Shown here piece after piece: positions 12,675 through 64,000 of a stretch of DNA of 64,000 bases. A model generated the notes under the pieces. It was given only the letters and a program-made list of their open reading frames with translations. It ran no database searches and had not been told where the DNA came from. Origin of the DNA: a virus; IMG/VR virus record IMGVR_UViG_3300044940_000489, positions 55,537 to 119,536 of that record. One strand, given 5' to 3'. The position numbers and the translations under genes were made by a program. Numbering within the stretch: the first letter of the stretch is position 1; each line of letters begins with the position of its first letter.

Positions 12675-12774
12675 ACATGTTAATGGGCAGTTGTGGGATC
12701 AGTTGGGGAGTCAGTTTGGGGAGCAGTTGAGGTATCGGCTTTATAAAGGCATTAAGTATTATGAAGAAGCGTAG
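12661..12774 (+). CDS. QLxx-repeat mini-protein 2 (37 aa)
   Basis: Hand-translated: MKKRKHVNGQLWDQLGSQFGEQLRYRLYKGIKYYEEA. Confidence 0.65.
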   Translation: MKKRKHVNGQLWDQLGSQFGEQLRYRLYKGIKYYEEA

Positions 12775-20199: not shown

Positions 20200-20487
20200 A
20201 TGGGATTGATATTTGGTAGCAGAAAGAAACTGATTGTTACACTGGCAGCACTCGTTCCTGCCGCTGCAATTGTTGATATGCTTCTTTTGAAATTGTTATT
20301 TGGTGAAGGGGTCGATAATTTTGCTAATGGCGTAATTATCGCTGGAGCTGTATTGGCAGTAGTAAATTCTACTGTATTGGGCATTATGAATCTAGTCGAG
20401 GCGAAGCGAGATGCGGATGCAATTAAAAGAGCTATGGAGCAGTCTTTTGAGGAAGACTACGAGTCGGATTCCGAGGAGACGGCCTAA
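20200..20487 (+). CDS. Two-TM membrane protein with acidic tail
   Basis: Two hydrophobic segments; behind cassette B. Confidence 0.6.
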   Translation: MGLIFGSRKKLIVTLAALVPAAAIVDMLLLKLLFGEGVDNFANGVIIAGAVLAVVNSTVLGIMNLVEAKRDADAIKRAMEQSFEEDYESDSEETA

Positions 20488-22322
20488 CGGTCTCCTCTTT
20501 GCTTTTTATACTCGTCGTAATCCTTACCTTTATATACAATTTTACTGCCTTCAAATCCGAATCCTGGCATTAAGACGGTTAGAATATCGCGACAATTGCT
20601 GGAAACAATGCCACGAGCCACAAAAGATGCGTCCTCTTCTACGGTTAGGCAATAGACTCTTCCATTGTTTCTAGTTCGGCCATATTTTATGGACAGTATT
20701 TTTGTTTCTTGAAATGAATATATTCCATCGTGATTGTTCAGTATATTTTGTATATCGGCAATAACTCTATCTTTTTTAATGTCCGAAGATTTTTTAAAGC
20801 CGTACCTTAATACGGACCAGCCTTGATTTTTAAGCCATGAGTCCCTGGCTTGATCTTTTGCTATCCTGTCTCCTTCATGGTATTTGCCATCTATCTCAAT
20901 TGCTATTTTATCCTCTACTAATGCTATATCTATGCAGTATCTGCCGACTTGATATTCCATTTCAACAGTTTTCTGTCTATAAAAATCTTTAATCCAAGAA
21001 TATACGTAACGCTGCTTTTTTGATATGCGAGTTGAGGCAGAGGCCTGCATCATCTGCGGCAATCTAGATATTAGTTTATCTCTTTGTTGCGCCCTTCTCT
21101 CTTCATTCCAATACTGTGACGCAAAATAAGACCTGGCACCATTTTCATATGCTTTTAAAATGCCCTGAGAGCAATTTGCCGCCCGAATACTTTTCTGTTC
21201 TATGGATAGCGTATCGTGGTAATGCTTGACTTGGGCACGCATCAGTTCATTGAAGCATGCCTGAGAGCATGTTTTGGACATTTCAAAGCCTACGGAATGC
21301 TTGAATTTGGTTTGCTTTCCACAAACCACACACGGATAATTCAACTGAATAAATTTATCTTCTTCCGTTAAATCTTTTGCTTCTATCCAGCCTCTCTGGG
21401 TTAAAAATTTATGGTCGGGAGTGACATGGTGTGCAAATCTTCTGCCATTATACTCATAATGAATTATCATGTTTTTTTTGTTGGTATATGGCTCATTAAT
21501 AACGCCCACAACTTTTTTAAATTTACCTGTATGCGTTAGTACCTTTTCTCCAACTTTAACATTTTTAATTGCCTTCCAGCCTGTCTCGGTTAAAACTGGC
21601 ATGCGCCCCTCTGTAAAACAATTGGGATGGGTCGGGCTTACGCTAGCATCTGGATTTTTCCAGTGTCCGGGACTGCCCGAAAGTTCACTCATCTTGTAGA
21701 CTTTAGGCGTAATTTTGTCTGGCATTGTCCAAAGGCGCCAGCAGATCCGGCAACGCTTTTCATCGAGTACGCCAATCTTAAAAACGACAGGGTCGTCGAT
21801 GCCAACCGATTTAGCTGCACCCAAAATGCCATCGAACGCACCTATATTTTGTGCATTATGAAGTTCATGGGTGACCAGAACGTCTGCAGCCTTCTTAATC
21901 TTGTCTCTTTGATCCTTTAATTCTTTTGAGATAGAAGCTAGGATCTTTTGTCCCTCTGGCTGCCTAATGTAATCTTCTGGCTTCTGATTCTTTATCTTAG
22001 CTTCTACGGTCAAATTGTCGATTTTTTCGCCAACAATCCTAGTAGTGTCTGCTATTGCTTTTTGCTCTAGGGCATCTATATACTTTTCTGCAATATCCTT
22101 AAGCTTGCTAATAGACTTATCATCTGGCCGCCCAGGCTTTATATCATTAACTGTATTGGCATGAGAATACAGATGCCCTATTGTAGTATTGGGATCAAAG
22201 TTCTTTAATAAAAACAAGAACTGAGTGGAAACTTTATCTGGTCCCAAAAGATGCATCTTAAGGGACGAGAACGTCTTCTTTATATTATCTTCTATTATTT
22301 TTTGTAGCTGCTTAGTCAGCAC
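20484..22322 (-). CDS. MuF/SPP1-gp7-like head morphogenesis protein containing an intein
   Basis: CRIC and THPN|CRD extein motifs; directly downstream of the portal. Confidence 0.8.
   Translation of the reverse strand: MLTKQLQKIIEDNIKKTFSSLKMHLLGPDKVSTQFLFLLKNFDPNTTIGHLYSHANTVNDIKPGRPDDKSISKLKDIAEKYIDALEQKAIADTTRIVGEKIDNLTVEAKIKNQKPEDYIRQPEGQKILASISKELKDQRDKIKKAADVLVTHELHNAQNIGAFDGILGAAKSVGIDDPVVFKIGVLDEKRCRICWRLWTMPDKITPKVYKMSELSGSPGHWKNPDASVSPTHPNCFTEGRMPVLTETGWKAIKNVKVGEKVLTHTGKFKKVVGVINEPYTNKKNMIIHYEYNGRRFAHHVTPDHKFLTQRGWIEAKDLTEEDKFIQLNYPCVVCGKQTKFKHSVGFEMSKTCSQACFNELMRAQVKHYHDTLSIEQKSIRAANCSQGILKAYENGARSYFASQYWNEERRAQQRDKLISRLPQMMQASASTRISKKQRYVYSWIKDFYRQKTVEMEYQVGRYCIDIALVEDKIAIEIDGKYHEGDRIAKDQARDSWLKNQGWSVLRYGFKKSSDIKKDRVIADIQNILNNHDGIYSFQETKILSIKYGRTRNNGRVYCLTVEEDASFVARGIVSSNCRDILTVLMPGFGFEGSKIVYKGKDYDEYKKQRGDR
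20595..21620 (-). mobile_element. Intein (342 aa) with DUF559/Vsr-like endonuclease
   Basis: Starts CFTEG..VLTETGW..IK.VKVGE.VLTHTG; block B VTPDHKFLT; EYQVGRYCIDIA...IAIEIDG.YH; ends VYCLTVEEDASF.A.GIVSSN|C. Confidence 0.9.
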
Positions 22323-33697: not shown

Positions 33698-36460
33698 ATG
33701 AAAGAATTTGCTAAATCAAAAACCGCAAGCAAAACAATAACTTCTGATTCAAATAAGATTCAGAAGGTAGTATTAGAGACCCTTCATCAGGCTAGTCAGC
33801 TCGTAGGCTCAACCTTGGGTCCTAACGGCAAAATCGTTTTAATTGAGCGTCAAGAAAATATTGGGCCATATGTTACCAAAGACGGTATTACAGTTTTTAA
33901 TTCCATGGCTTTTGCAGATCCCACGAAACAGGCAATTCTAGAAGCAGCTAGGGATAGTTCTTCAAAAACTAATGTGGAGGCAGGTGATGGACCACAGCCA
34001 TTATATAGTAAAGTTTTGACTCCAAGCGGCTTTGTCCAAATGAAGGACGTATCCGTTGGCATGAAAATTAGCGGAACAAACGGAACTACTCAGACCGTTT
34101 TGGGGGTATATCCAAAAGGCCTAAAAGAAATATACGAAGTTGAATTTGAGAATAAGGGCGTAGTCGAGTGCTGTGAAGATCATATTTGGTCGGTATCGTA
34201 TAATAAAAATAATAAAAATAAGACAACCAAAGAACTTTACAGGGATTATGTAAAAACAAGTGGCGGATATAAGAAATATAAGTATTTCGTGCCACGAACT
34301 GTAGTTGAATTTAAGAGCAGCGAGACAGCAATGCCACTGGACCCATACCTAGTAGGACTATTGATTGGGGGCGTGACGGTAAGGGATTCTGGAAGCTTTG
34401 AGCTATTTTTAGGCGCTGACAAAAAACATATTATTGAAAAATTAGTTGTTCCAGCAGGTATTACTAAGTCTGTTCAATTTATTAAAGACGAAAATTATTA
34501 TAGAGTGCAGCTTGCAGGAACTGACAAGCACAATCGCTCTATTCAGCATATTTTGAAGCAAATAGGGCTCAAAAATGCCCCCAGCAGCACAAAGCATATA
34601 CCACAAGCTTATTTATACAGCTCAATGACTGCTAGAAAACAATTGCTACAGGGCCTTATAGATTCTGACGGGTACATCAATAAGAAAGGCATGTTTGAGT
34701 TTAATACTACATCAGAACAATTCGCACATGATGTCAAGCAGCTTTGCAGCAGCTTGGGCCTTACTACGCTTATTAGCAGGAAAAACCGCTCTAAAGTTAA
34801 TCCTGATACTACGAGCATTCGCATTGCTCAATTGAAAGGCCATAAATTAGGAGACAAGATTATTCGCATCACTCCAACCGGACGCTTTACGGAAATGCAA
34901 TGCATCAAGGTAAGCAATCCGGACAGCCTGTACATAACTGATAACTATGTCGTCACTCACAATACTACTTCCGCTACAATTTTGGCAGAAGCCCTTATTA
35001 GGCTTGGATTGAACTATCTGCGCGAAAATCCTAGGGTTTCCACTCAAAAGGTAATGAGAGAGCTTGAGCAGGCGTATAATGAGTTTGTTGTGCCATTTAT
35101 CCAAGACAACGCCATTAAGATTACCACTGAAAACGACGAGGACCTTTTAAAGAAGGTAGCCCTTGTAGCCACTAACTACGACCAAGAAATGTCAGAAGCA
35201 GTAATTCAGGGATTTGGCGAAGTTGGGCACAGCGGGAATATTACTATCGCAGAGGCTCCCGGAGTTAGTGGTTTTGAAGTTGAAAAGGTAGAGGGCTTCC
35301 ACATTGCAAAGGGATTTGAAGAGACTTGCGGTCGTTTTATTGAAGAGTTTATTAACGACAAGGGCAATTACAGAACCCTGCTCGAGCGCCCCAAGTTCTT
35401 GCTTTATAATGGTAAAATTAACGATATTAGCCAAATCATGAAAGTTCTTGAGATTTTTGGCGATGCGTCAGATAGCGTTAAGTACGGAAAGAACGCCATT
35501 AGCCCCAACTTAGTTGTCGTAGCGCATCACTTCTCTGAGTCTGTCCTGGCTATTCTGGCAGCTAATTTTAGAAACCCCACTTCAATAAACGTATTGCCTC
35601 TGAAGACTCCAATGACGATTCAGGCTAATAGCCCATATCATTTCTTGCTAGATCTGGCAGCTTTTGCCGGAGCCACAGTTTTTGACCCGCTTTCTAGACC
35701 GCTAGAAACAGTGGAAATTGCCGATCTTGGCCTCGATACTATGCAGCTATTCGAGTTTGGTCGATTTAAGAGTACTGTAATAGGTCGCCCAGAAGAGATG
35801 TTTTTAATGCCACGAGTTGAGGAGCTGCAGCATCAGCACAGAAACGCCGAAAGCAGTATGGACGCAGAGCTTCTTAATGAGCGAATTGCCATCCTTACGG
35901 GCGGGATTGCACGAATTAAAGTACTGGGAAGCTCCGAAGCCGAGCTTAAGGAAAAGCGCCACAGGGTGGAAGATGCTGTTGCGTCTATTAAGGGTGCCAT
36001 TAAATACGGAGTTCTTCCAGGATGCGCAAAGACCATGCTTACGCTGTCCAAATTGATTAGCGCCAATGAAGATCTGCCTCGCTCAGTCAGGCACATTATG
36101 GGCAAGGCTTTTGCTGAGCCATTCCGTCGTATTTTGGATAACGGAGGCTATCACGCAGATGAGATTAAAGAAGTGGCGCAAAAGATTACATCGCAAAACT
36201 TCTATTATACCTACGACGCTCTAAATCAGAAGTTTGGCGATGCCATTGAGCTTGGAATCTTGGATTCGGCAGCAGCAGTTAATATGGCCATCAAAAATAG
36301 CTTGTCTGTGTCTAAAATGCTAATGGGACTAAGCGGAGTCGTTGTCTTTACTAGGGATGCAGAGCTTGAGCGCCAAGAAGCCAGGGACTACTATTCTGAA
36401 CAAAGAGCTATGAAGGAAGCAATTGAAAATCAAGAACGAGACATGTGGCAGCCAGATTAG
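33698..36460 (+). CDS. groEL: Phage GroEL-like chaperonin with intein
   Basis: TLGPNG, VTKDG.TV, AGDG|TTSAT, ERIA.L.GGIA.I, RVEDA and GVLPG motifs; 596 aa after splicing. Confidence 0.9.
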   Translation: MKEFAKSKTASKTITSDSNKIQKVVLETLHQASQLVGSTLGPNGKIVLIERQENIGPYVTKDGITVFNSMAFADPTKQAILEAARDSSSKTNVEAGDGPQPLYSKVLTPSGFVQMKDVSVGMKISGTNGTTQTVLGVYPKGLKEIYEVEFENKGVVECCEDHIWSVSYNKNNKNKTTKELYRDYVKTSGGYKKYKYFVPRTVVEFKSSETAMPLDPYLVGLLIGGVTVRDSGSFELFLGADKKHIIEKLVVPAGITKSVQFIKDENYYRVQLAGTDKHNRSIQHILKQIGLKNAPSSTKHIPQAYLYSSMTARKQLLQGLIDSDGYINKKGMFEFNTTSEQFAHDVKQLCSSLGLTTLISRKNRSKVNPDTTSIRIAQLKGHKLGDKIIRITPTGRFTEMQCIKVSNPDSLYITDNYVVTHNTTSATILAEALIRLGLNYLRENPRVSTQKVMRELEQAYNEFVVPFIQDNAIKITTENDEDLLKKVALVATNYDQEMSEAVIQGFGEVGHSGNITIAEAPGVSGFEVEKVEGFHIAKGFEETCGRFIEEFINDKGNYRTLLERPKFLLYNGKINDISQIMKVLEIFGDASDSVKYGKNAISPNLVVVAHHFSESVLAILAANFRNPTSINVLPLKTPMTIQANSPYHFLLDLAAFAGATVFDPLSRPLETVEIADLGLDTMQLFEFGRFKSTVIGRPEEMFLMPRVEELQHQHRNAESSMDAELLNERIAILTGGIARIKVLGSSEAELKEKRHRVEDAVASIKGAIKYGVLPGCAKTMLTLSKLISANEDLPRSVRHIMGKAFAEPFRRILDNGGYHADEIKEVAQKITSQNFYYTYDALNQKFGDAIELGILDSAAAVNMAIKNSLSVSKMLMGLSGVVVFTRDAELERQEARDYYSEQRAMKEAIENQERDMWQPD
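33992..34963 (+). mobile_element. Class-3 intein (324 aa) with LAGLIDADG-type endonuclease
   Basis: Starts PQPLYSKVLTP (no Cys/Ser at position 1); W in CCEDHIW, C in EMQCIKV, T in VVTHN|T; LQGLIDSDG. Confidence 0.9.
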
Positions 36461-36483: not shown

Positions 36484-36771
36484 ATGCTTATTAAATATAA
36501 ATGCAATCTTTGCGATAATGAAATTCAAAAGTATTTTCATAAAACTGATAAGCAGGCCAATTTTCTTAATTGCCAATGTGGTGGCGTTCTTGAGCGCCAA
36601 GTTCCAGATTTTGGAACAACTAGCCTAGAATACGTTGACAATGGAGTGTCTGCAAAAAGGGTGGAGCTAAGAAAAGATGCCGTGCTACGCGCAAAAGAGC
36701 GTGGCGATAAATATATTGAGGCTAAGGCTAATGCTGCTACAGTTTTAGGCAAAAAAGAAGGCCAAGACTGA
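36484..36771 (+). CDS. Zinc-ribbon (FmdB-like) protein
   Basis: YKCNLC...CQCGG.LER. Confidence 0.65.
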   Translation: MLIKYKCNLCDNEIQKYFHKTDKQANFLNCQCGGVLERQVPDFGTTSLEYVDNGVSAKRVELRKDAVLRAKERGDKYIEAKANAATVLGKKEGQD

Positions 36772-38948
36772 TGCGCATTGCACTAAAAAAAATAAACATA
36801 TCTGGATTCCTGGATATAGATCAGGATCAAGAGTACATCTTTGAGCAGAGCGGCATGGTTGGAATATTTGGAAAAAACTGCGACACCGGCTCATCTAATG
36901 GAGCCGGAAAAACGTCATTTATTACAGCCATACCTGCGGCAATATATGGAACAGCCTATATACCGTATTCAGTTAAAGATCTCAAAAATCGCTATTTAGA
37001 TATTAGTCCAAGAATCCTGCTCGAAATGGAAATAGATGGGGAGCCTTTTATTATTGACCGAACCTTTGGTGGAGCAGTCAAGATTAAAAAGGGCAGCTCT
37101 GACTGGGAGAGCGGAACGGCCAAAGACATGCAAGAGCGCATTAACAAAGCAATTGGACTAACGCCAGACCAGTTACTGGCCCTGACCCTTAGGTCACAGG
37201 GCAATTTTGGCGGCTTCTTGCTTATGAAAGATTCTGAAAAGAAAGATTTCTTGTCTGGTTTTTTTGAGCTGGATCTATTAGAAAAAGCGCACGAGGAAGT
37301 GCAGCGCCAGCTAAAGTCTGCTATGCCAGTACTGGATTCAATAAATAAAGATTTAATTTGGGAAAATAGCCAACTAGATGCTTGCTCTAAGCAAGTGGAT
37401 GCCCTGCTCAGCGAAGTCAAATCCCTTAGCAATCTAGACAAAAAGAACTGGATTAATAATATTTTAAGTCAAATCCACAAAAATAATATTTCTGTAAAAG
37501 AGCTAAAACTAAAGCTGAACTCAGTACAGGACTCCCCTGAGATACGAGAAATATTACTGGCATGCGAGGATATCGTCAGGCAAATAAATGAAAAGCAATC
37601 TGAGATATCGTCACTAAAGCAGCAGCTTACTCCAGAAAGCGACACGCCAGCGCCCATCCCGGAAAATCTGTCATCGGCGTTGCATCGAAAGAGTACTGAG
37701 CTAGATGAAGCAAAGCAGCGCTTGCATCAAAAGCTTAAAATATCAGAATTATTACAGTCACAGAAGAGATCTGTTGCGGTCATGTCTGAAAAAAAAGCTT
37801 CCGCTTCCTCTGAATTGTTGGCAGCCCAAAAGCAGCTGGAGAGCCTTAGGCATCAGCAGAAATGTTATACTTGCCATCAGCCCCTGCCGGAATCATTATA
37901 CGAGGACCAACTTGCTATTATTAACAGAAAAATTGATGAGTTAAATTCAATTATTGAGCAATTCGATCAGCAAATTGCTGGGGCAAACTTGTCAAAACTA
38001 GAGGCCGTCCTAGAGTCTTTTAGTGACGCAGAGAAAAATATCCAGTCTATTCAGGACGAGCTTGCGATGATAAACGCAGAAATAATTTCATTTCAAAAAA
38101 ATTCTTTAAATACTCTTGCAAAAATATCAAATGATTCTATTAAATCTAGAATATTGGGTGCACAGCAAGTAATAGCGTCTCTTGAAAGAACTCTCATTAC
38201 TCAAAAAAACACCGCATCAGAATTAGCCCGTCAGGCAACAAGATCAATAGAATCAGATATTGCCAGGCTTGAGGGGGACACATCTTCGCTCCAAAAAGAA
38301 TTAGAAAACCATCAAAAGTACCTTGCTCTAGTTAGAGAGCGCCTGGATTATGAACAAAAACGATTAAACCTGAGTCAGGACAAGATCCGGGGACTGGCGG
38401 ACAAGCATGCTTCCACAAGTGCCGAAATCGAGATTCTTCAGAAGACGGCTGAGGCACTGTCAAAGAACGGTTTTGTAGGATATTTATTTGATGGAATTCT
38501 TGCAGAGCTTAATTCCGGCACAAATCAGATTCTTAAAAGTATGCCGCTAGTGTCTAATTTTTCTTTGTATTTCTCGCCAGATAAAGTGTCTCAGTCAAGT
38601 GGTAATATCAGCAAGGTCATATCGTATCAAATCTACTCAGGAAATCATCCAGTAAACTTTGAATCTTTATCAGGGGCCGAAAAGATATGCGTCGTAATGG
38701 CAGTAGATGAGGCACTGGACGACGTTTTGTCCAGGCGCCTGGGAGTAAAAACTGGATGGAAAATCCTTGACGAGCAGCTTATGTACGTAGACGAGCAGAA
38801 CAAATCTGCTATACTGGACTTCCTATCTAATAGGTATTCCGACCGCTCGATTTATATTGTGGATCATGCATCTGAATTTAATGCGGCTTTAGAAAAAAGA
38901 GTATATATTATTAAAGAAAACGGCATAGCCAGCATAAGGTCAGCATGA
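36771..38948 (+). CDS. SbcC/Rad50-like ATPase
   Basis: NGAGKT, coiled coil with CYTC hook, LSGAE signature, ILDE and VDH. Confidence 0.9.
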   Translation: MRIALKKINISGFLDIDQDQEYIFEQSGMVGIFGKNCDTGSSNGAGKTSFITAIPAAIYGTAYIPYSVKDLKNRYLDISPRILLEMEIDGEPFIIDRTFGGAVKIKKGSSDWESGTAKDMQERINKAIGLTPDQLLALTLRSQGNFGGFLLMKDSEKKDFLSGFFELDLLEKAHEEVQRQLKSAMPVLDSINKDLIWENSQLDACSKQVDALLSEVKSLSNLDKKNWINNILSQIHKNNISVKELKLKLNSVQDSPEIREILLACEDIVRQINEKQSEISSLKQQLTPESDTPAPIPENLSSALHRKSTELDEAKQRLHQKLKISELLQSQKRSVAVMSEKKASASSELLAAQKQLESLRHQQKCYTCHQPLPESLYEDQLAIINRKIDELNSIIEQFDQQIAGANLSKLEAVLESFSDAEKNIQSIQDELAMINAEIISFQKNSLNTLAKISNDSIKSRILGAQQVIASLERTLITQKNTASELARQATRSIESDIARLEGDTSSLQKELENHQKYLALVRERLDYEQKRLNLSQDKIRGLADKHASTSAEIEILQKTAEALSKNGFVGYLFDGILAELNSGTNQILKSMPLVSNFSLYFSPDKVSQSSGNISKVISYQIYSGNHPVNFESLSGAEKICVVMAVDEALDDVLSRRLGVKTGWKILDEQLMYVDEQNKSAILDFLSNRYSDRSIYIVDHASEFNAALEKRVYIIKENGIASIRSA

Positions 38949-55537: not shown

Positions 55538-56350
55538 ATGAGCACTATTAAAGCTTACACAGAAGAGAGCTTAATGAGCGGCATCGACGAGGCGCGGCGA
55601 AGAATATTCTTCGGAAAGCATCTCAGTGGAGATCCGGATGATACGACGGATTTTACGCAGGCTTCGGTAGAATTGGCAGTAAGAGCAATCCACAAAATGG
55701 CTTCAGACGCGCCGCATAAGCCAATAGAAATTCACATGAATTCCTATGGAGGCGACCCCACAGCCATGCTGTACCTCATGGACGTGATCCTTTCTTGTGC
55801 GTGCCAAATTAAATTTTTTGGTGGGGGCGCAATCGCAAGCTCAGCGACCTGGATTATGGCTGTATGCGATGAAAGGTACTTGTACCCAAATGCCATGATC
55901 TTAATTCACGCCGGTTCGAGTGCGCTTGAGGGCTCACATACTGATCTAGTCATTACCGTTGACAATGAAAAGAGACTGCAGGACCACTTAGAGTCCATAT
56001 ATGCCAATAATTCTAGAATGCCAAAAAGCTTCTGGCATGCAGTAGCTAAAAGGGACCTATGGCTGACGGCTGAGGAAACCATTGCACTGGGGCTGGCCGA
56101 TAAGCTTATTTTGCCCAAAAAGCGGGGGAACTTACGAAAAATAAGGCAGGCCCACTTAGGCCAAAAAAGCAATACGGCAAAAATGAAGAAATTAGTAGTT
56201 AAGTTGTTCGAGCGGATACAGCTGCCATTTGATGTGGAAAATATTACATTGAACGCACCTCCACAAGAGGAGGCCGATCCAAATGTGACCGTTGACTTGA
56301 CAGAGGCCGATAAATTGAGTATTATGATAGAACCAAAAGAAAACCCATGA
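55538..56350 (+). CDS. clpP: ClpP-like protease
   Basis: NSYGG, G.IASSA (Ser), LIH (His), RDLWLTAEE..LGLAD (Asp). Confidence 0.85.
   Translation: MSTIKAYTEESLMSGIDEARRRIFFGKHLSGDPDDTTDFTQASVELAVRAIHKMASDAPHKPIEIHMNSYGGDPTAMLYLMDVILSCACQIKFFGGGAIASSATWIMAVCDERYLYPNAMILIHAGSSALEGSHTDLVITVDNEKRLQDHLESIYANNSRMPKSFWHAVAKRDLWLTAEETIALGLADKLILPKKRGNLRKIRQAHLGQKSNTAKMKKLVVKLFERIQLPFDVENITLNAPPQEEADPNVTVDLTEADKLSIMIEPKENP
56297..56325 (+). promoter_or_regulatory. Sigma70-type promoter TTGACA-17-TATTAT
   Basis: Within the 3' end of clpP; abuts the left end of element 1. Confidence 0.7.
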
Positions 56351-56606
56351 CTTTAGTCGTGGGATGAATTTTTAAAAACTTAATAATATGTTAGTGGCGT
56401 TAATAAGTTTGGTGTAGTATAATATATAATGTGGTACTACCCATGATAGGGACATACTAGCAGCAAACAATATAAACAATTCGCATTAATGCGAACACTT
56501 GGTGGAGAGGGCAGCCTACCAAGTATAAATAAAGCCTGTGGAGCGATCAACGGTAGTTGGAGCAATGAAGCAGGAACCCCATGACTTTAGTCGTGGGAGC
56601 TGTCAG
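56326..56606 (+). mobile_element. Non-autonomous IS200/IS605 element 1 (281 bp; tnpB deleted, omegaRNA-like right end kept)
   Basis: Left end GATAGAAC plus CCCATGAC-TTTA-GTCGTGGG hairpin; tnpB remnant CGTTHDRDILAANNI (56430-56489); right-end hairpin plus AGCTGTCAG. Confidence 0.9.
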
Positions 56607-56629
56607 TGAAAATAATAAGGAGATTCCAG

Positions 56630-57181
56630 ATGGAAATAAACAGCAATAATTCCGAAGCTACAACACAATCTGATGCGCAGGCGACCACAGAGGTTACTGC
56701 AGCAAGTTCAGAGACTGCCACAGCGGCTACTGATACGGCTACCAATAAAACCGCTAGACAGATAAAAAATATTCGACGGAATCAAAAGAGATCACAAAAG
56801 GTGTGGTCTTTTTATATGCAAAAAGAGTCGAATCGAAGGCGCAAGCTCAAAACTCAATTAGAGGTACTTAGGGGCCAAATCGGCACTAAGAATTTTAAAC
56901 TACTTAAGACGTTGGCCACAACAGTCTCAGAGGCCACTAAAGACGAAAATGGCAATATAACTTCACCAGAATCTCGAAGCATTAATTATGAAATGCTCCT
57001 GAAAGAGGGGAAAAATTTAATTGTAATGCTAAGAGAAGAGCGCATGCGAGAAGGCAAGAGAAGCAGAAAGACCGGCACGTCTCGAAATAGGGCCCGCCAT
57101 AATTCTGCCTTCAGGTTCCTTTCTGCCAGAAACCTGGCGGCCTCGTCTGAGGAAGTGACTAAAACTGTAAAATCTGAATAA
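56630..57181 (+). CDS. Hypothetical basic protein with Thr/Ala-rich N-terminus
   Basis: Start re-called behind AAGGAG. Confidence 0.6.
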   Translation: MEINSNNSEATTQSDAQATTEVTAASSETATAATDTATNKTARQIKNIRRNQKRSQKVWSFYMQKESNRRRKLKTQLEVLRGQIGTKNFKLLKTLATTVSEATKDENGNITSPESRSINYEMLLKEGKNLIVMLREERMREGKRSRKTGTSRNRARHNSAFRFLSARNLAASSEEVTKTVKSE

Positions 57182-57441
57182 TGGGCCTGAGTTTCATAGC
57201 CATACCGATAATAGGCTCCGTAATCATGATGATTCTCGGGATCTCCTGGGAAGAGGCATTTTTACTTATGGGGCCCCTAATGTTAATCATTATTAGCCGC
57301 TATCTAACGACTAAAGCAATTGAAGAGCAGATTGCAGAAGAGCTTTCTGCCAAAAAATCTGAATGTCCGCCACACGAATGGCTCACTTCAGATGGAATAA
57401 TTAAATGCAAAAAATGCTTATTTAGAGTGGGTATCGACTAA
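57181..57441 (+). CDS. Two-TM protein with C-terminal Cys/His cluster
   Basis: CPPHEW...CKKC. Confidence 0.55.
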   Translation: MGLSFIAIPIIGSVIMMILGISWEEAFLLMGPLMLIIISRYLTTKAIEEQIAEELSAKKSECPPHEWLTSDGIIKCKKCLFRVGID

Positions 57442-57776
57442 TGTCTGAGCTTAAAAGCACCGGAATTAGGGTGTCTAAAGAATTCGCCGAGTCCTTGGCT
57501 CGGAAAATTAAAGATATACGGTACCGCTACGATATACCTCCTAATGCCCCTCTAATGAAGGGCAAGCTCTTTTGGGACGACGAAACGGTCTTAGAAATGG
57601 TAGTCTCTTCCGTAACCTCTGGCGGCCTCTTAACAGACGAAGACATGATTGGGGCCAGCCTTAATTTTGACCCAGCTTTTATAAAAGACGGTAAATACGA
57701 CAAATTAATACACGCCTGCTTAACCAAGCTGGCACAAATCGACTACAAACGCGAAACCAGCCTTGACTTCCATTAA
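57441..57776 (+). CDS. Hypothetical protein
   Basis: TAATG-coupled. Confidence 0.55.
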   Translation: MSELKSTGIRVSKEFAESLARKIKDIRYRYDIPPNAPLMKGKLFWDDETVLEMVVSSVTSGGLLTDEDMIGASLNFDPAFIKDGKYDKLIHACLTKLAQIDYKRETSLDFH

Positions 57777-57792
57777 TAAATAGTGCTATTAT
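57763..57792 (+). promoter_or_regulatory. Sigma70-type promoter TTGACT-18-TATTAT with extended -10 TG
   Basis: Abuts the left end of element 2. Confidence 0.65.
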
Positions 57793-58078
57793 GATAGAAC
57801 TAAAAGAAAGCCCATGCCTTTAGGCGTGGGATGAATTTTGAAACAAGGTAATATATAATAAGTTTCTTCAAAGTGATGTATAAATTAGTGACAGAGAACC
57901 AAATCACTAATTTATGCATTGAAGACAAAAGTCTTCAATATAATGAAGAATGTTGTATTAAAACAGAAACTTGGAGGAGAGGTCAGCCCTCCAAGTATAA
58001 ATAAAGCCTGTGGAGCGATCAACGGTAGTTGGAGCTATGAAGCAGGAACCCCATGACTTTAGTCGTGGGAGCTGTCAG
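57793..58078 (+). mobile_element. Non-autonomous IS200/IS605 element 2 (286 bp; tnpB deleted, omegaRNA-like right end kept)
   Basis: Same termini as element 1; internal YKLVTENQITNLCIED resembles TnpB RuvC-II; the last ~110 bp are nearly identical to element 1. Confidence 0.9.
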
Positions 58079-58084
58079 AGGGCT

Positions 58085-58972
58085 ATGTTTAATTTTAATA
58101 CGCCAGCAGCACTAAAGAAATTCCTGCGCAGAATAACATATATAAATACAGTGCTTTTCATAGTAGCCTCTATAATGATTCTTATGGCGCTTACTATGAA
58201 AACAGCTCATGGCGATGTCTGGCAGCACCGCCACTCTCCGCCTAAGCTCAGGCCAACTAAGGGGTCCATCACAGTAATGGTTGTTGATACTGGCGTAACG
58301 CCTAATAACCCCGTCATATCTCCATACTTGGTTAAGCCCGTTCAAATTCAAGATGTAGACACGCATGGCCATGGAACTCATGTAACGTCCCTAATTGTCG
58401 GGGGAGCCGGTACCATGAGAAAGGACGGGGAAGTTCATTTTAGTTCTTTGGTCTGCCCAGAAGTTCGCGTTATAGCCTGCAAATTTTATGATCCTAAAGC
58501 TATTACGAAAATTAATTTAGACAACAGCATTGCGTGTTTCCAGAAGGCTTTGGAGCTTAATGTAGATATAGTTAACTACTCGGCTGGCGGACCGGATTCC
58601 CTAGAGGAAGAGAGACTGGCTATAGAAAAGCTTCAGGAGAATGACATAATATTGGTAACTGCAGCGGGAAACGAGGGGTCAGATCTTAAAATATATCCAT
58701 ATTACCCAGCTAATTATCAATTAAAAAATATGGTAATAGTTGGGGCCTTGGGCCTCCCACCTAACAAGTTTAATGCGTATCAAAGATTTAAAAGCTCTAA
58801 TTTCGGAATATTTGGAATGTATTGGGAAATAGGCGAAGCAGTTTTGGGGTATAACCACTTGAACAAGCCGCAGTACATGACCGGAACATCTCAGGCCACC
58901 GCTTTAGCCACTAACCGCATACTAAGGCAAAGATGCGAGGAAATGAAACAGAAAGACAAAAAGGAGAAATAA
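58085..58972 (+). CDS. S8 subtilase with N-terminal TM/signal
   Basis: VVDTG, HGHGTHV, AAGN and GTSQAT. The ORF-track start (58010) lies inside element 2, so the start is re-called to MFNF. Confidence 0.9.
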   Translation: MFNFNTPAALKKFLRRITYINTVLFIVASIMILMALTMKTAHGDVWQHRHSPPKLRPTKGSITVMVVDTGVTPNNPVISPYLVKPVQIQDVDTHGHGTHVTSLIVGGAGTMRKDGEVHFSSLVCPEVRVIACKFYDPKAITKINLDNSIACFQKALELNVDIVNYSAGGPDSLEEERLAIEKLQENDIILVTAAGNEGSDLKIYPYYPANYQLKNMVIVGALGLPPNKFNAYQRFKSSNFGIFGMYWEIGEAVLGYNHLNKPQYMTGTSQATALATNRILRQRCEEMKQKDKKEK

Positions 58973-58973
58973 A

Positions 58974-59285
58974 GTGAACTACTTCGATAATGATATGCTA
59001 GCCGGTTTGGTTGTGGCCGCTTCTGCAGCCTTATTATTGGGCAAATGGATGCTTTTGGGGACCTTTATGAGGGAGATCCGAAGTCTCCGTTTTCTTAATG
59101 ATTCAGCCACGATGTCCGCATCATTAAGAATGGATGATATTGATACGGAGATTGACAAATTGAAGGCAGACATTGTATTATTAAAAAATCAACAAAGGAG
59201 CAATAATGAGTCATCCGGCGCACAATCCAAGTCAAAGCCTAGAGCATCTGGCTCTGGAAATCGCAAAAGCAAAAGCAGAAATTGA
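58974..59285 (+). CDS. TM plus coiled-coil hypothetical protein
   Basis: AAGGAG RBS with GTG start. Confidence 0.55.
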   Translation: MNYFDNDMLAGLVVAASAALLLGKWMLLGTFMREIRSLRFLNDSATMSASLRMDDIDTEIDKLKADIVLLKNQQRSNNESSGAQSKSKPRASGSGNRKSKSRN

Positions 59286-59571
59286 TTCTATGCGGCCTCT
59301 GTATGAAAAGCTTGACGCCCTCACGCTACAGTTTCGAGAGCTGGCTGGCGAGCAAGAAGTGTTAGTTCCGGACACCATAGTAGACTTGCCGGGGAGACCC
59401 TCTATCTCGGTTCCGGCACAGTTCATTAAAGTAGTAGATAATTTTATGGACAAAAATGTAGTTTTCCGTCCAGCCGCAGTTAGAAGATTTGAAGTGAATA
59501 CGGAGACCGAGATTCAACGCAAACTAAAAGTAGCAAAAGCTGCAAAAAAGCTAGAAAATGCTAAGATCTGA
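59206..59571 (+). CDS. Hypothetical protein
   Basis: AAGGAG RBS. Confidence 0.6.
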   Translation: MSHPAHNPSQSLEHLALEIAKAKAEIDSMRPLYEKLDALTLQFRELAGEQEVLVPDTIVDLPGRPSISVPAQFIKVVDNFMDKNVVFRPAAVRRFEVNTETEIQRKLKVAKAAKKLENAKI

Positions 59572-59923
59572 CGCCGAATATTTTATGAATAATTGGGACA
59601 AAAATGTCTCAAAGGTTTTTAGATGGCGGCGTCCCTTTGTGCCAGACGAGTATTTAGCTTTTTTTATAGATGAAAAAAATAGGTATAAGGTTAACGAATC
59701 GGTTTCAACTAAAACCATGAAGAGCCTTGATAAAAACGAAATGATTACATTGCTGGTAAGTGAAGAGCTGTATTTCATGAAAAATTATGATTTCTATTGC
59801 AATCTTTTGGAAATGAAAACTGGTGGATGCACATGTGGTGCATGGGCTCTTCCAGGATATGAAAATCTGCATAACAATCAATGCAATTTAAGATATAAAA
59901 ACTTAACGGAGGTGAAGAAATGA
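59558..59923 (+). CDS. Hypothetical protein with CTCG...H...C cluster
   Basis: Possible metal-binding tail. Confidence 0.55.
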   Translation: MLRSDAEYFMNNWDKNVSKVFRWRRPFVPDEYLAFFIDEKNRYKVNESVSTKTMKSLDKNEMITLLVSEELYFMKNYDFYCNLLEMKTGGCTCGAWALPGYENLHNNQCNLRYKNLTEVKK

Positions 59924-60345
59924 AAGCCATAGTTTGGGTTGGCCTCAATCCTTCGCCCAAGAACACGACTCCAGAGACTGCTTTTGTAGGGTCTCCTAGC
60001 GGCAAAAACTTGGCCAAGTGGCAAGTTGAAGTAGACAAAAAAGTAAAAAGCCCCCTGCATCATAAAATGTATAATCTTTGTACAGTCGTCAGTTCTAGTG
60101 AGCGAGCTATTTCGCAAGAAATGGCAGACGTAGGGGCGATTGCCAGGATTTTGAAGCATTACAGAAATAATGACACAATCGTTGCGCTCGGCAATAAGGC
60201 CTCTAAGATACTCTTGGCAAACAATATCCCACACATTAAAATGCCTCATCCAAGTCCCGCAAATAGGCAGCTAAACAACCATGTTTTTATAAAAAATAAA
60301 CTAAAATATTTAAAAAATAATATTATGGGGAGTAAATTAAAATGA
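59920..60345 (+). CDS. Uracil-DNA glycosylase-like fold protein
   Basis: VWVGLNPS, F.G.PSG..L, IVALG..A and MPHPSPAN. Confidence 0.75.
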   Translation: MKAIVWVGLNPSPKNTTPETAFVGSPSGKNLAKWQVEVDKKVKSPLHHKMYNLCTVVSSSERAISQEMADVGAIARILKHYRNNDTIVALGNKASKILLANNIPHIKMPHPSPANRQLNNHVFIKNKLKYLKNNIMGSKLK

Positions 60346-60578
60346 AAAGATACAGAGTAATATGGAGTGTACAGACTAACGAATTCGTTGTACCAGAATT
60401 AATGGCTAAGCCCATCGGAAGCAACGAGGCATCCTTTGTTGATTTCGATGATCTGGATGAGGCGAGAGCCTTCCAAAAGGGTATCCGTGCGCTCTCCGAT
60501 AGATATGGCCAGATATATGGCATGTCTAAATTTATAGTAAACAATGGCCCATTGATAATTGATAGATTAGGCGAATAA
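60342..60578 (+). CDS. Hypothetical protein
   Basis: Coupled ORF. Confidence 0.5.
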   Translation: MKRYRVIWSVQTNEFVVPELMAKPIGSNEASFVDFDDLDEARAFQKGIRALSDRYGQIYGMSKFIVNNGPLIIDRLGE

Positions 60579-60599
60579 ACCTAGATCGGTAAATACAAA

Positions 60600-61064
60600 A
60601 TGAGATTGCCGCTGGTTTTGCATCCTGATCCAAGACTTTTAATAAAAAGTACGCCAATTGAGGCGGCCAAGATTGCGCATGAAGTGGCGTTTGTCAGAGA
60701 TTTGGTAGAAACGATGATTTATGAGGGGGGCATTGGCATATCGGCCCCTCAAGTTGGACGAAATGTACAAATAATAGCTATATCTACGATTCAATCGGAC
60801 CCCAAGCACGGGATTCCAGCAACGGTAATGTTTAACCCAGAAATCACTTATTGCTCTGATAAAAAGAGCGTTTTCGATGAAGGATGCCTGTCATTTCCTG
60901 GGGAGTCCTGCCAAGTCACAAGAAGTTCATTAATACGCGTTAAATTTTTTGACTCGAATGGCAATTTGAGACATAATACATATGTAGGCATCACCGCTAT
61001 CTGTATTCAGCACGAGATCGACCATTTGCAAGGCATAACCATGAAAATGCGATCTAATAAATAA
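60600..61064 (+). CDS. def: Peptide deformylase
   Basis: GIGISAPQVG, EGCLS and QHEIDH. Confidence 0.95.
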   Translation: MRLPLVLHPDPRLLIKSTPIEAAKIAHEVAFVRDLVETMIYEGGIGISAPQVGRNVQIIAISTIQSDPKHGIPATVMFNPEITYCSDKKSVFDEGCLSFPGESCQVTRSSLIRVKFFDSNGNLRHNTYVGITAICIQHEIDHLQGITMKMRSNK

Positions 61065-61079
61065 TAGAAAGGACATGAT

Positions 61080-61472
61080 ATGTCTGACCAAACATCCGCT
61101 AAACGATCTGAGATTCTAACGCCAGTAGCTGGATTGTCCGTTTGGGAACTGACCCCAGATATGAAGCAGACACTGAGCGACCTGTCTAAAGAAGTATTTG
61201 GCAACAGCAGAGCCTGGGAAAAACTAATCAAAAAGGGCGAGCTGATCCAGGATACTGAAAATAAAAAAGCAAAGCGATGGGTTCCGCTAACCTTGGAAGA
61301 AGTCGCCACTAGGATGTTTATTATTAAAGAGCAAAGAGACTTGGAAGCCAAAATGGCGTCGGAGTCAGAAAAACAAGGAGAATCGAATGCTCAATCTAAT
61401 CAAGAAGTCGGCAGCAGCGCTGGCGATGATGGCACTGCTAGTTCCACAGTTGAGTCGGGCTCAGCTGACTGA
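61080..61472 (+). CDS. Hypothetical protein
   Basis: AAGGA RBS. Confidence 0.55.
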   Translation: MSDQTSAKRSEILTPVAGLSVWELTPDMKQTLSDLSKEVFGNSRAWEKLIKKGELIQDTENKKAKRWVPLTLEEVATRMFIIKEQRDLEAKMASESEKQGESNAQSNQEVGSSAGDDGTASSTVESGSAD

Positions 61473-61815
61473 AATTACTAATGCCAACGCAGAATCAATA
61501 CTAAAGCAGTCCAAGACTCTGGTACTGGTCTTGTTTTATGCCGATTTCTGCGGCTACTGCAAACAACTCGAAGCAGAACTGGTAAAGAGGCAGCCGCAGC
61601 TTAGCGGTAAGCTTCTGCTCGCAAAAGTAGATATCGTTTCCAATGGTATTGGGCTGCCAGCCGTACCCGTACTAGTTCTTTTTGATGGCGGATCGGCGGT
61701 TGATTCAGTAGTCGGGTTTAACCTTGAAGAAACGGATCGCCTGATTGCGCTGGCCACTAAAAGAGGAACAATTCCGCTTAGGCCTTCGCCAAACGCCAAA
61801 GAGGCAAGAAAATAG
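61387..61815 (+). CDS. Thioredoxin with signal peptide
   Basis: FYADFCGYC, AVP; N-terminal signal ending SRA. Confidence 0.8.
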   Translation: MLNLIKKSAAALAMMALLVPQLSRAQLTEITNANAESILKQSKTLVLVLFYADFCGYCKQLEAELVKRQPQLSGKLLLAKVDIVSNGIGLPAVPVLVLFDGGSAVDSVVGFNLEETDRLIALATKRGTIPLRPSPNAKEARK

Positions 61816-61818
61816 TAT

Positions 61819-62022
61819 ATGTGCATCATCTGCGTCGAGTTAGACAAGGAACGCATGACTAAAAACGAGGCCCTTCGCGCCATAGGAGAGCTATCTATGT
61901 CAGATAAGAATGACACAGAGCATTTGGAAGAGCTAAAGTCTTCACTAGAAGGCGCCCCTGAGCTTCCTCAGGGGTCTGGCGAGCTTTATGATAAGCTGCG
62001 GGCGGTTTGGCGAGGAATGTAG
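61819..62022 (+). CDS. Hypothetical protein (MCIIC)
   Basis: Co-oriented ORF. Confidence 0.5.
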   Translation: MCIICVELDKERMTKNEALRAIGELSMSDKNDTEHLEELKSSLEGAPELPQGSGELYDKLRAVWRGM

Positions 62023-62030
62023 GTGGGGCC

Positions 62031-63035
62031 ATGTTTGACTTTGGATTTGGGGACTCTCCTGGCATAAGGTCACTGCTTAAGTCAATTCGCGGCAGTGGAA
62101 GAGTAGAGCTGGAAATTTCAGATCTATATTATCAACATAAAACTGGCAACGCACTGCTAGTCACTCATTTAAAAACACTGATTAGCAGATTTGCTGGTAA
62201 ATGCTATGACCACGTATTCGTTACCGCAGGTGCAGAGCACGCCATAAATACTTTGCTTAGAGCCCTTCGGCCAACGCTAACTAAAATAAAAAACACTAAT
62301 TTAACTGCTATCTCTTTTGAGTCCCCCTATTTCAGTCACTACGCCGATATGGCCGAAAGAGCCGGATATTTTCGCATAAGTGGCAGCTTGCCGGGCCTTG
62401 ATTACATTCGCCTTATTGATTCCCCATCTAACCCAGAGGGCAAAATCAGAGCCGATGATGGATCGGCCAGCACTATGGCCAAATATGTAATTTGGGATGG
62501 GGTTTATCATAATGACATTTACTGTAAAAACTTATATTTTAAGCCAGCTCATGATTTTTATGTAGGAAGCATTGGCAAGATGCTGGGCATACCTGGCATT
62601 CGATTGGGTTGGATTGCTTTCGATAATACTGTCAATAAAATCACTAAAAAGCCTGCGGACATTGCAATAGCCCACGAGATCTACTCTGAAACTTTAGGAG
62701 TTAGCGGAGCCTCCCAGATTGCTGCTATAAAAATTATTTCTGAGACGAACATGGATTGCTTCTTTAAGAACGCGGCCTCAACTGTGGACTCCAATAGAGA
62801 GCTTATGACGGGTCTGGAATATCTATCCGGGACAAAAGTTCCGGATAATGGGATGTTCTTTTATATGCAAACAGATAGCTCAATACGTGAGCTTTTTGAC
62901 AGGGTTGGGGTCACTTACATACCGGGCGAACAAATAGGAAGTACTGAGGATTTTATTAGGCTAAATTTGGCTCAAACAAATGATCTTACAAAGAAAATGG
63001 TAATGGCCATTAGATCGGCGGATCGTAAATGCTAA
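62031..63035 (+). CDS. PLP-dependent class I/II aminotransferase-like protein
   Basis: TAGA, SPSNPEG, WDGVY and SIGKMLGIPGIRLGW; start re-called to MFDF. Confidence 0.85.
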   Translation: MFDFGFGDSPGIRSLLKSIRGSGRVELEISDLYYQHKTGNALLVTHLKTLISRFAGKCYDHVFVTAGAEHAINTLLRALRPTLTKIKNTNLTAISFESPYFSHYADMAERAGYFRISGSLPGLDYIRLIDSPSNPEGKIRADDGSASTMAKYVIWDGVYHNDIYCKNLYFKPAHDFYVGSIGKMLGIPGIRLGWIAFDNTVNKITKKPADIAIAHEIYSETLGVSGASQIAAIKIISETNMDCFFKNAASTVDSNRELMTGLEYLSGTKVPDNGMFFYMQTDSSIRELFDRVGVTYIPGEQIGSTEDFIRLNLAQTNDLTKKMVMAIRSADRKC

Positions 63036-63358
63036 CTAGACTATCAATGATGGTAATCTTTTTTGTGACAGTATTAATTTTAGCGCTTAATATTCTTATG
63101 GTTACGCATTTAACTACAAAAACCGTCTACGATATGGACCATATAAGAGCGCAGCACGAAGAAGATATACGGAGCACAATAATGACATCTTGCATATACG
63201 GAACCAAATACAAACCAGAAGTAGCTGCCCCAAGCAAATATTGGGACGAAAATAGCAACGTATACTACTGCAATGAATTTATGAAACGGCAGATGGAAAA
63301 TAATTACCCAGCCATGGTCATGAGACTGGGGCAGGGCAGAAAGAGAGACAGGAAATGA
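63029..63358 (+). CDS. Membrane-anchored hypothetical protein
   Basis: N-terminal TM helix. Confidence 0.55.
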   Translation: MLTRLSMMVIFFVTVLILALNILMVTHLTTKTVYDMDHIRAQHEEDIRSTIMTSCIYGTKYKPEVAAPSKYWDENSNVYYCNEFMKRQMENNYPAMVMRLGQGRKRDRK

Positions 63359-63618
63359 TTGCACCAAAAGTTATTTTTAAGCTCATCCTGGTATGCGCAG
63401 AGCCTCATGTCGAAAATCTGACTAACGTGTGGACTCCACAGGATGAGCTGGAATTTGGCAAGGCAAAAATCGAGTGCTCGGTTCTAGCGGATACCCCATG
63501 TTTAGGGGTCTTCACCAAGACTTTGGACGGCAAGTACGACAAAACCTGCATTAAAAAAAGCCTATTTCAGTACGAATCATACGAAGTGCAGGAATTGCCC
63601 CCTGGATTTAAGAATTGA
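63355..63618 (+). CDS. Cys-containing hypothetical protein
   Basis: ATGA-coupled. Confidence 0.5.
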   Translation: MIAPKVIFKLILVCAEPHVENLTNVWTPQDELEFGKAKIECSVLADTPCLGVFTKTLDGKYDKTCIKKSLFQYESYEVQELPPGFKN

Positions 63619-63641
63619 TGATTAAGATCAATCTAATTTAT

Positions 63642-64000
63642 GATAGAACTAAAAGAAAACCCATGGCTTTAGTCGTGGGATGAATTTTGAAAAAATATAA
63701 TGATATAATAGTGGTGCTAATAAGTTTGGTGTAGTATAATATATATGATTAGATCGTATAAATATAGAATTTATCCAAATAAAGAGCAAGCCCAAAAACT
63801 AGAGCAGTTTTTTGGGACTACACGTTTTATTTATAATTGGGGTTTGGAACAAAAAACCAAACAATATCAACAAGATAAGGCAAATCTATCTTGTTTTGAT
63901 TTAATTAAAAAATTAACAAAACTTAAAAAACAAGAAGAATTTAGATGGTTAAAGGATGTTTATTCACAAAGTTTGCAAGCATCTTTGAGAAATTTGGATA
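63642..64000 (+). mobile_element. IS1341-type (tnpB-first) IS200/IS605 element 3, truncated by the window edge
   Basis: TTAT|GATAGAAC left end and CCCATGGC-TTTA-GTCGTGGG hairpin; shares TAATAAGTTTGGTGTAGTATAATATATA with element 1; no tnpA between the left end and tnpB. Confidence 0.9.
63745..64000 (+). CDS. tnpB: TnpB RNA-guided nuclease, N-terminal part
   Basis: Not in the ORF track. Hand-translated MIRSYKYRIYPNKEQAQKLEQFFGTTRFIYNWGL...LTKLKKQEEFRWLKDVYSQSLQASLRNLD. Confidence 0.92.
   Translation, partial: MIRSYKYRIYPNKEQAQKLEQFFGTTRFIYNWGLEQKTKQYQQDKANLSCFDLIKKLTKLKKQEEFRWLKDVYSQSLQASLRNLD

Follow-up and report, generated by a model that had tools for sequence, protein, structure and literature searches.

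A family of tnpB-less elements with conserved omegaRNA-like scaffolds at promoter edges in a tailed-phage genome

The DNA analyzed here, a 64,000-nucleotide stretch referred to as the window, is the last 64 kb of the 119,536-bp viral record IMGVR_UViG_3300044940_000489 (record coordinate = window coordinate + 55,536). The window contains two short elements without a gene, called minis below (elements 1 and 2), and the beginning of a third element carrying tnpB (element 3). On the whole record, the census came to two tnpB copies (one of them intact, with the D-E-D triad, at genome 36.4-37.6 kb), five minis in two deletion types and three micro-elements, which is more than the initial annotation of the window had listed. 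We are confident that the window minis are PATE-like standalone-omegaRNA elements, that is, tnpB-less derivatives of one IS200/IS605-type TnpB-only family. The analysis establishes how the elements are built, that the nuclease motifs are intact and the RNA fold conserved, that insertion follows a rule and that empty sites exist. Use of the mini scaffolds in trans by TnpB is the slightly favored reading, for which we infer mini transcription, loading in trans, cleavage and homing. The initial annotation had proposed a multi-guide system. Its components were found, namely one TnpB family, several cassettes with a full scaffold and their own guide, and a TnpB with an intact D-E-D triad; the working of these components as one system stays conditional.

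A search of the whole record with the right end gave six copies of at least 110 nt at 94 to 100% identity, plus hairpin-only matches. These six right ends belong to the five minis and the intact tnpB copy, and left-end searches gave the pairing. In record coordinates, the minis lie at 20477-20762 (+), 30531-30222 (-), 35282-35567 (+), 111862-112142 (+, element 1) and 113329-113614 (+, element 2). The full-length copy is on the minus strand of the record, with its ATG at 37583 and its right end at 36371, and is the only complete tnpB on the record, outside the window. The second full-length copy, element 3, starts at record 119178 and is interrupted by the contig end; an independent contig covers window 59887-63871. 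The two window minis were where the initial annotation had placed them, with corrected limits (Table 1). It had also stated that they lost tnpB by different deletions, one keeping a RuvC-III remnant and the other a RuvC-II-like remnant, and the remnant matches agree: element 1 retains TnpB residues 345-396 (RuvC-III, HDRD), and element 2 retains residues 254-277 (RuvC-II region) and 360-396. Element 1 and the 30-kb copy are of type 1, in which the region of the tnpB start codon is fused to the RuvC-III segment. In type 2, represented by element 2 and the copies at 20 and 35 kb, the promoter -10 is fused to the RuvC-II segment, which is then fused to the scaffold. The RuvC-II coding remnant of type 2 forms a 16-17-bp hairpin beside a 6-7-bp hairpin, with a 7-bp helix around both (fold z -7.53 and -7.8). 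This interior hairpin is found at window 57875-57920, in the 20.5- and 35.3-kb copies of the record and at about 4640-4680 (-) of a second phage contig described below.

Both ends of the elements have the IS200/IS605 arrangement, with subterminal imperfect hairpins at either end and terminal inverted repeats absent. The left ends in the window, at 56322, 57789 and 63638, each read TTAT followed by GATAGAAC and then a GC-rich hairpin. The left-end hairpin CCCATGNCTTTAGNCGTGGG and a near-identical right-end hairpin were present in all full and mini copies compared for membership in IS200/IS605. The difference between GAC/GTC and GCC/GGC in the left-end hairpin, which had been remarked on before, was read directly in the copies. 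The right ends at 56485-56606 and 57957-58078 are 92% identical over 122 nt, and the last 110 nt agree at 105/110 positions, so the near-identity described earlier for a right end of about 110 bp was reproduced.

Table 1. Positions of the elements and their parts in the window (window coordinates).
Feature	Position	Strand	Description
Promoter-like site, element 1	56297-56325	+	TTGACA-17-TATTAT, 11/12 consensus; last four bases (56322-56325) are the TTAT motif
Element 1	56326-56606	+	281-bp tnpB-less mini, type 1; limits reproduced by the joint 56325 to 56607; part order: left end with hairpin 56344-56363, tnpB promoter region, RuvC-III remnant, right end
Small hairpin 5' of element 1 scaffold	56480-56495	+	
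Element 1 scaffold	56497-56606	+	110 nt, omegaRNA-like; three conserved helices and terminal hairpin with UUUA loop; z -3.18
Element 1 putative guide	56607-56622	+	16 nt; covers the AAGGAG ribosome-binding site of the next gene (ATG 56631)
Promoter-like site, element 2	57763-57792	+	TTGACT-18-TATTAT, 10/12, TG before -10; last four bases are the TTAT motif
Element 2	57793-58078	+	286-bp tnpB-less mini, type 2; joint 57792 to 58081; part order: left end with hairpin 57811-57830, RuvC-II remnant forming a 17-bp hairpin 57875-57920, right end
Element 2 scaffold	57969-58078	+	110 nt, omegaRNA-like; z -4.04
Element 2 putative guide	58079-58094	+	16 nt; covers the ATG (58085) of a subtilase-like gene
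TTAT motif, element 3	63638-63641	+	Hybrid promoter-like site TTGATG-18-TAT/GAT, 63615-63644, 9/12
Element 3	63642-64000	+	Left end (hairpin 63660-63679) and first 85 codons of full-length tnpB (ATG 63745)
Micro-element	12126-12170	-	Behind TTGACC-17-TATTAT, 12 nt before an AAGGAG-led gene; without scaffold

The intact tnpB copy encodes a protein of 396 amino acids with HTH_OrfB_IS605, OrfB_IS605 and Cas12f1-like_TNB domains (E values from 3.3e-19 to 1.4e-28). It matched the ISDra2 TnpB structures with an E value of 6.2e-66 and showed the motifs GIDLG, FEDLN and HDRD (D-E-D) together with both zinc-finger cysteine pairs. The initial annotation had placed the start of a same-family tnpB at 63745. 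The open reading frame at this position showed an HTH_OrfB_IS605 domain (E value of 3.5e-20) and identity with the intact copy at 76/85 residues, and its end is lost at the contig end. Its 85 residues are identical to the N-terminus of P0003, a database protein of 396 aa that is intact and carries the motifs of the intact copy. P0013, a 313-aa product encoded at the beginning of a different contig, is identical to P0003 from residue 84 on. Judged from these two matches, the contig-end copy is very probably complete in nature. A related database protein, P0008, which is 84% identical to the intact TnpB, has FENLN at the RuvC-II motif, compared with FEDLN in the others; the catalytic E is kept and the adjacent D is changed to N.

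The D-E-D triad was present in both the intact copy and P0003, and the possibility raised earlier that tnpB is a pseudogene did not hold. The two tnpB copies on the record differ with a synonymous divergence (dS) of 0.31 over the common 85 codons, and the intact copy and the tnpB of the second phage contig differ with a dS of 0.57 and a dN/dS of 0.14. Because dN/dS is 0.14 at this dS, tnpB does not represent a pseudogene lineage. The intact copy has no left-end hairpin; its promoter region follows directly after TTAT, and the tnpB stop codon lies within the right-end hairpin. In the usual IS200/IS605 mechanism, a copy without the left-end hairpin could not be excised, and this copy is therefore not excisable by that mechanism.

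The second phage contig (G001, 20 kb, viral) carries a full-length tnpB at 85% protein identity, in which one TAG shortens only the C-terminal tail, and a mini about 650 bp from this full-length copy. The remaining genes of the contig are collinear with those in the first 12 kb of the record, at 33-41% identity, and its elements lie between two genes that adjoin each other in the record. In its mini, the promoter is joined to the RuvC-II segment at the type-2 junction, and the long interior hairpin persists at 13 bp, with one G-U pair. The left-end hairpin of this mini pairs at 6/8 positions by reading, and the right-end hairpin is perfect through a compensated change. The same variant is also visible in the community as loose contig ends.

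The scaffold was examined by aligning eight right ends, six from the record and two from the second viral contig. The sequences aligned without internal gaps except for one loop base, and RNAalifold and single-sequence folds agreed on four helices (z from -3.2 to -5.2 in 4/4 folds). Among the eight sequences, all of which form the same helices, 96.7% of the paired cells could pair, compared with 90.6% in shuffles (0/500 reached the observed value) and 32-46% with slid partners. Both-sided changes were found in 8/34 pairs, and 22/500 shuffles reached the same count. Clear covariation within the scaffold was seen at four pairs, which were the A-U/U-A columns 38/53, the C-G/U-A columns 83/94, the A-U/G-C columns 85/92 and one pair of the terminal hairpin. 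Columns 38/53 hold A-U in five of the eight copies and U-A in the other three and are broken in none; this is the stem difference between CTTGGTGG/CTACCAAG and CTTGGAGG/CCTCCAAG that had been recognized as compensatory from the window alone. When applied to tnpB genes of only 49-53% identity, a covariance model built from these copies recovered the fold at their 3' ends. In the model-fitted alignment, both-sided change was found in 28/34 pairs, a figure that the fit to the model leans towards structure; of its 13 rows, one (the 30-kb micro-element with spacer) has no true scaffold and was still counted. A pseudoknot is possible by eye between CAGC in the loop of the first helix and GCUG in the 3' tail, both invariant in 8/8 copies and without covariation.

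The conserved block is 110 nt long, with the UUUA loop at -21 to -18. It overlaps the tnpB 3' end and the right end and is followed by a guide derived from the flank, as in an omegaRNA. For ISDra2, a published account gives an omegaRNA with a 116-nt scaffold, four stems and a pseudoknot, a 16-nt guide and a UUUA loop at -20 to -17 (PMC10097598). Thus, the family resembles ISDra2-type TnpB (IS200/IS605, IS1341-like) in having a scaffold over the tnpB 3' end, of about 110 nt compared with 116 nt, with a UUUA loop near its 3' end. The likeness extends to the three Pfam domains, the D-E-D triad and the zinc finger, to the subterminal hairpins at both ends, and to insertion 3' of a short motif without target duplication. 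In contrast, the motif is TTAT here (TTAC or TAAT in the second contig) and TTGAT in ISDra2, the carrier is a phage, tnpA was not found on the three viral records searched, and the intact copy lacks the left-end hairpin. A search of the whole window with Rfam at gathering thresholds gave no match.

The TTAT motif, as ATTAT or TTTAT, precedes 9/9 elements on the record, which contains 1,598 TTAT sites. The initial annotation had set each element behind a promoter, and this was borne out for both minis, whose promoter-like sites (Table 1) are the two best within 56200-58200 and end exactly at the two insertion points. Since such strong promoter-like sites end exactly there, transcription of the minis is plausible. 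Over both strands of the whole record, TTGACN-17/18-TATTAT had five matches, three of them with an element at the 3' edge, the motif having been defined after the hits were seen; a fourth element sits after TTGGCA-18-TATTAT. Elements at a TATTAT 3' edge are those with edges at window 12126-12170 (-), 56322-56325 and 57789-57792 and at record 20471-20476. A start codon on the sense strand begins 7-24 nt 3' of most minis. Part of this placement pattern must be due to insertions persisting only in short intergenic regions, and a true target preference for promoter edges is possible. Upstream of element 1, a Clp-protease-like open reading frame (window 55538-56350) ends in the left-end hairpin of the element, the insertion having replaced its last residues; in a translation of the empty site, it would continue to a stop codon overlapping the start of the next gene.

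The two 3' flanks differ, so that elements 1 and 2 have distinct putative guides, as had been noted from the window. The guide length of 16 nt was inferred from ISDra2. Targeting of the record itself or of ten related loci was considered and rejected, as the guides had no TTAT-preceded match at up to three mismatches in the rest of the record or in these loci. Empty sites in relatives, which the initial annotation had suggested looking for, were found for elements 1 and 2 alike, as joints in contigs from other samples. These data are assembled contigs, not reads, from four runs aligned at 85% likeness, and runs X10 and X11 may belong to one campaign. A contig of 318 nt in X11 runs up to 57792, then reads AT and continues from 58081, with element 2 removed to the base; this joint has 98 nt on its shorter side and a depth of 3.2. 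In X10 and X11, one contig each joins 56325 to 56607, with element 1 removed to the base. The joints show a scarless presence/absence polymorphism, and targets consisting of TTAT and the guide exist in relatives. Insertion 3' of a conserved tetranucleotide without target-site duplication, together with scarless empty sites, is the manner of IS200/IS605 elements. The predicted empty-site patterns of elements 1 and 2 gave no match each in IMG/VR, where near-identical records may lie outside the searched set.

Three micro-elements lack a scaffold and are reduced to a single hairpin between the tips of the left and right ends; they lie at window 12170-12126, at record positions of about 30107-30062 and, in a palindromic form, at record 37793-37755. 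The last two take part in a side arrangement, a spacer of about 133 bp common to the record loci 30531-30062 (-) and 37793-36371 (-). At both loci, a right-end tip lies in front of the spacer, and TTTAT with an element comes after it, the layout being mini, spacer and micro-element at 30 kb, and palindromic hairpin, spacer and tnpB without left-end hairpin at 37 kb. The two loci resemble a composite of two tandem elements that was duplicated or moved by transposition. The guide of the 30-kb mini originates in this spacer and matches the 37-kb copy with one mismatch, without a TTAT there.

Gene-less elements with both ends and a complete scaffold, five on this record, and a compatible effector in the same genome correspond to the published picture of standalone omegaRNAs and PATEs. 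Standalone omegaRNAs are found in genomes with effector loci and work in trans (PMC10691335, citing earlier work), and the omegaRNAs often encoded by PATEs depend on TnpB supplied in trans (PMC10055086). The likeness to these elements includes the absence of a gene, both ends, a full scaffold, a guide from the element's own flank and effector copies in the same genome. The differences are the position on a phage genome, the placement at promoter -10 edges, the putative function in trans and the presence of two deletion lineages, one of them common to a distantly related phage. The central idea of standalone omegaRNAs acting in trans and of PATE omegaRNAs is therefore already published; the present elements stand in a phage setting and show a useful natural polymorphism. 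The literature searches, which covered papers and not their supplements, gave no paper describing several standalone omegaRNA elements in one phage. A phage-borne tnpB has been described for cyanophage A-1(L) (bioRxiv 10.64898/2026.02.14.705889). Table 1 of a review classes non-restorative transposon homing, with co-infected phages or plasmids as recipients, as theoretical, and the review also cites a plasmid experiment (PMC13565253).

If the mini scaffolds are used in trans, the following sequence of events is proposed. As the minis lie in sense orientation directly after the TTAT of phage -10 boxes, they should be transcribed as leaders of the downstream genes. TnpB from the full-length copies of the phage would bind the mini scaffolds in trans and would cut phage genome copies in which TTAT is joined to the matching flank, that is, the element-free allele. 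Such an allele could be supplied by a co-infecting relative or arise when a host TnpA excises the element, and recombinational repair from the element-bearing genome would then copy the mini back with its neighbourhood. The proposal, its concept taken from PMC13565253, resembles the intronless homing and marker exclusion of the free-standing homing endonucleases of T-even phages in that an insertion-less co-infecting genome would be cut and repair would copy the locus. In contrast to those enzymes, recognition here would be by an RNA guide and TTAT, and one nuclease would serve several loci. The most far-reaching form of the proposal is that the phage runs RNA-guided marker exclusion with one or two TnpB genes and at least five dispersed guide cassettes at promoter -10 edges, that in mixed infections the element-free alleles of relatives are all cut and converted together with adjacent genes, and that the immobilized tnpB, which is under purifying selection, is a domesticated phage gene and not a transposon passenger. 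We consider this form unlikely.

A possible alternative, to which we give less than even weight, is that the minis are inert. They would be ordinary non-autonomous IS200/IS605 derivatives, dropped by a host TnpA into replicating phage DNA and surviving where they are harmless, in the gap between promoter and gene. Their scaffold would be kept by youth, by the need for mobility or by gene conversion, and binding by TnpB would be accidental and without selection. Several results favor this alternative over use in trans. The Y1 transposase TnpA (PF01797) was not found on the 119.5-kb record (0/1), with the control search finding it in 6/14 genomes, or on the two other viral records with a related tnpB (0/2), and there was no resolvase or serine recombinase on the record. 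A transposase would presumably act in trans, encoded by the host or by the 26% of the phage genome that the record lacks. Because there is no transposase on the record, new copies probably arise through a host enzyme, which argues against a selected function in trans. In run X1, the summed depth of the element bins was 60-728, compared with about 9 for unique phage DNA, thereby indicating a large reservoir of the family elsewhere in the community, and a host pool may have supplied the minis to the phage repeatedly.

The comparison of copies points in the same direction. Minis of the same type are 97-98% identical in the functionless middle and 94-97% identical in the last 110 nt, and right-end alleles are common to different types (110/110 between the 30- and 35-kb copies, 109/110 between the 20-kb copy and element 1). 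Since the middle is more alike than the scaffold, the copies look young or homogenized rather than purified. From these alignments, youth and gene conversion explain the conservation of the scaffold as well as selection does, and the earlier statement that the structural changes point to selection was not supported, as the scaffold is no better kept than the middle. Three scaffold-less micro-elements also persist at the same kind of site. The remaining points concern transcription and the empty sites. With its T-rich tail, the left-end hairpin obtains a terminator-like score, and transcription starting at the upstream promoter could end there. Of the empty sites, the one with better support, that of element 2, has T for G at guide position 2, beside the motif, and guide mismatches next to the motif matter most. 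The joints of element 1 have 20-24 nt on one side and a depth of 2.7, and letters between the flanks are possible. Finally, independent contigs in X1 end in the shared hairpins (56363, 56578, 57831 and 58050) and none spans a whole mini, so the assignment of each interior to its site rests on the original assembly.

Other results speak against inert minis. All three rearranged forms (type 1, type 2 and the mini of the second phage) diverge immediately upstream of the 110-nt block and thus stop short of the scaffold. The mini of the second phage has a weakened left-end hairpin (6/8) yet a perfect, compensated right-end hairpin, and the only complete tnpB of the record, despite the loss of this hairpin at its own left end, is still intact, with a dN/dS of 0.14. 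Published work would lead one to expect binding in trans if tnpB is expressed alongside the minis. Use of the mini scaffolds by TnpB in trans is retained as the preferred reading with these points on both sides.

It is improbable that the elements serve as gene-expression modules, in which the insertions would act as leaders (hairpin and T-tract attenuators or an added internal -10) and TnpB bound to the leader RNA would tune the downstream gene. The sense insertion exactly between the -10 and the gene start, the terminator-like left-end hairpins, the overlap of the guides with AAGGAG (element 1) and ATG (element 2) and the strongly structured type-2 interior (z -7.5) are consistent with such a role. 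However, this pattern follows from a TTAT target within TATTAT together with loss of insertions in coding DNA, and the nuclease triad is intact, unlike that of known TnpB-derived repressors. The phage-borne TldR proteins, which are nuclease-dead TnpB-like repressors, are similar in that a TnpB-family protein is on a phage with a guide beside promoters; they differ in that the D-E-D triad is intact in both copies here and in that the guides here match the insertion flanks of the phage itself and not host promoters. An assembly artefact, in which the minis would be collapsed or chimeric repeat joins of a short-read metagenome assembly, would account for the contig breaks in X1 but is very improbable, because the specific deletion junctions recur in three type-2 and two type-1 copies and in the second viral contig, the loose ends in the community show the variant of that contig, and the empty-site joints match the element ends to the base.

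The initial annotation had also seen in the cassettes a step towards CRISPR arrays, which we reduce to an analogy, as the cassettes are dispersed transposon copies with their own ends. CRISPR arrays, including phage mini-arrays, likewise combine a repeated RNA scaffold with variable targeting segments and a RuvC nuclease of the Cas12 lineage. The copies here are instead 1.2 to about 90 kb apart, each is a transposon unit with its own ends, and the guide is fixed by the insertion site, without adaptation genes, repeat-spacer periodicity or an Rfam match. The only regular repeats in the window, at 12.5-13.5 kb, are unrelated to the scaffolds. They are arrays of 12-nt-periodic direct repeats with units of about 148-160 nt (window 12494-13532).

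The occurrence of the family in other sequences was also examined. The exact 37-nt core of the right end had no match in IMG/VR, and a TnpB search of the same database gave one relative at 53% identity. Closer TnpB relatives were seen as database proteins (83-91% identity), and a metagenome scan gave relatives at 35-49% identity among the matches listed. The gapped scaffold pattern had no match in species-representative genomes. The right-end-tip pattern matched one contig of a Selenomonadaceae metagenome-assembled genome (L036 310-447), with only the terminal hairpin and the tip in common; this locus gave a weak match to the scaffold model (31.9 bits), and the preceding open reading frame was different. 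Because this genome carries the same tip and hairpin, the right-end tip is common to a wider group of insertion sequences.

The record is that of a tailed phage, with a portal protein (E value of 2.5e-23), a large terminase (2e-19), a DnaB-like helicase and an SbcC-like nuclease subunit. It has no end repeats, and its completeness was estimated at 74%. The genes near the window minis are Clp-protease-like, S8 subtilase, peptide deformylase, thioredoxin and aminotransferase-like genes. The sequencing runs containing the stretch are labeled as hot-spring and microbial-mat metagenomes. Apart from TnpB, the nucleases of the record are a large HNH/homing-endonuclease-like protein (window 13773-15371, E value of 1.2e-75) and the SbcC-like subunit of a palindrome-specific nuclease (window 36771-38948, E value of 1.3e-61). 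A palindrome-nuclease subunit is worth recording in a genome over which hairpin elements are scattered.

Altogether, the placement at promoter -10 boxes provides a concrete insertion rule for a TnpB family, with 3/5 motifs occupied. If the minis are inert, the locus represents ordinary decay products of IS200/IS605 elements in a phage. If their use in trans is true, the locus would provide a naturally occurring example of homing by transposons from one co-infecting virus to another, with one nuclease and several guides, in which the minis define targets of TTAT and 16 nt and relatives elsewhere show both the filled and the empty alleles.

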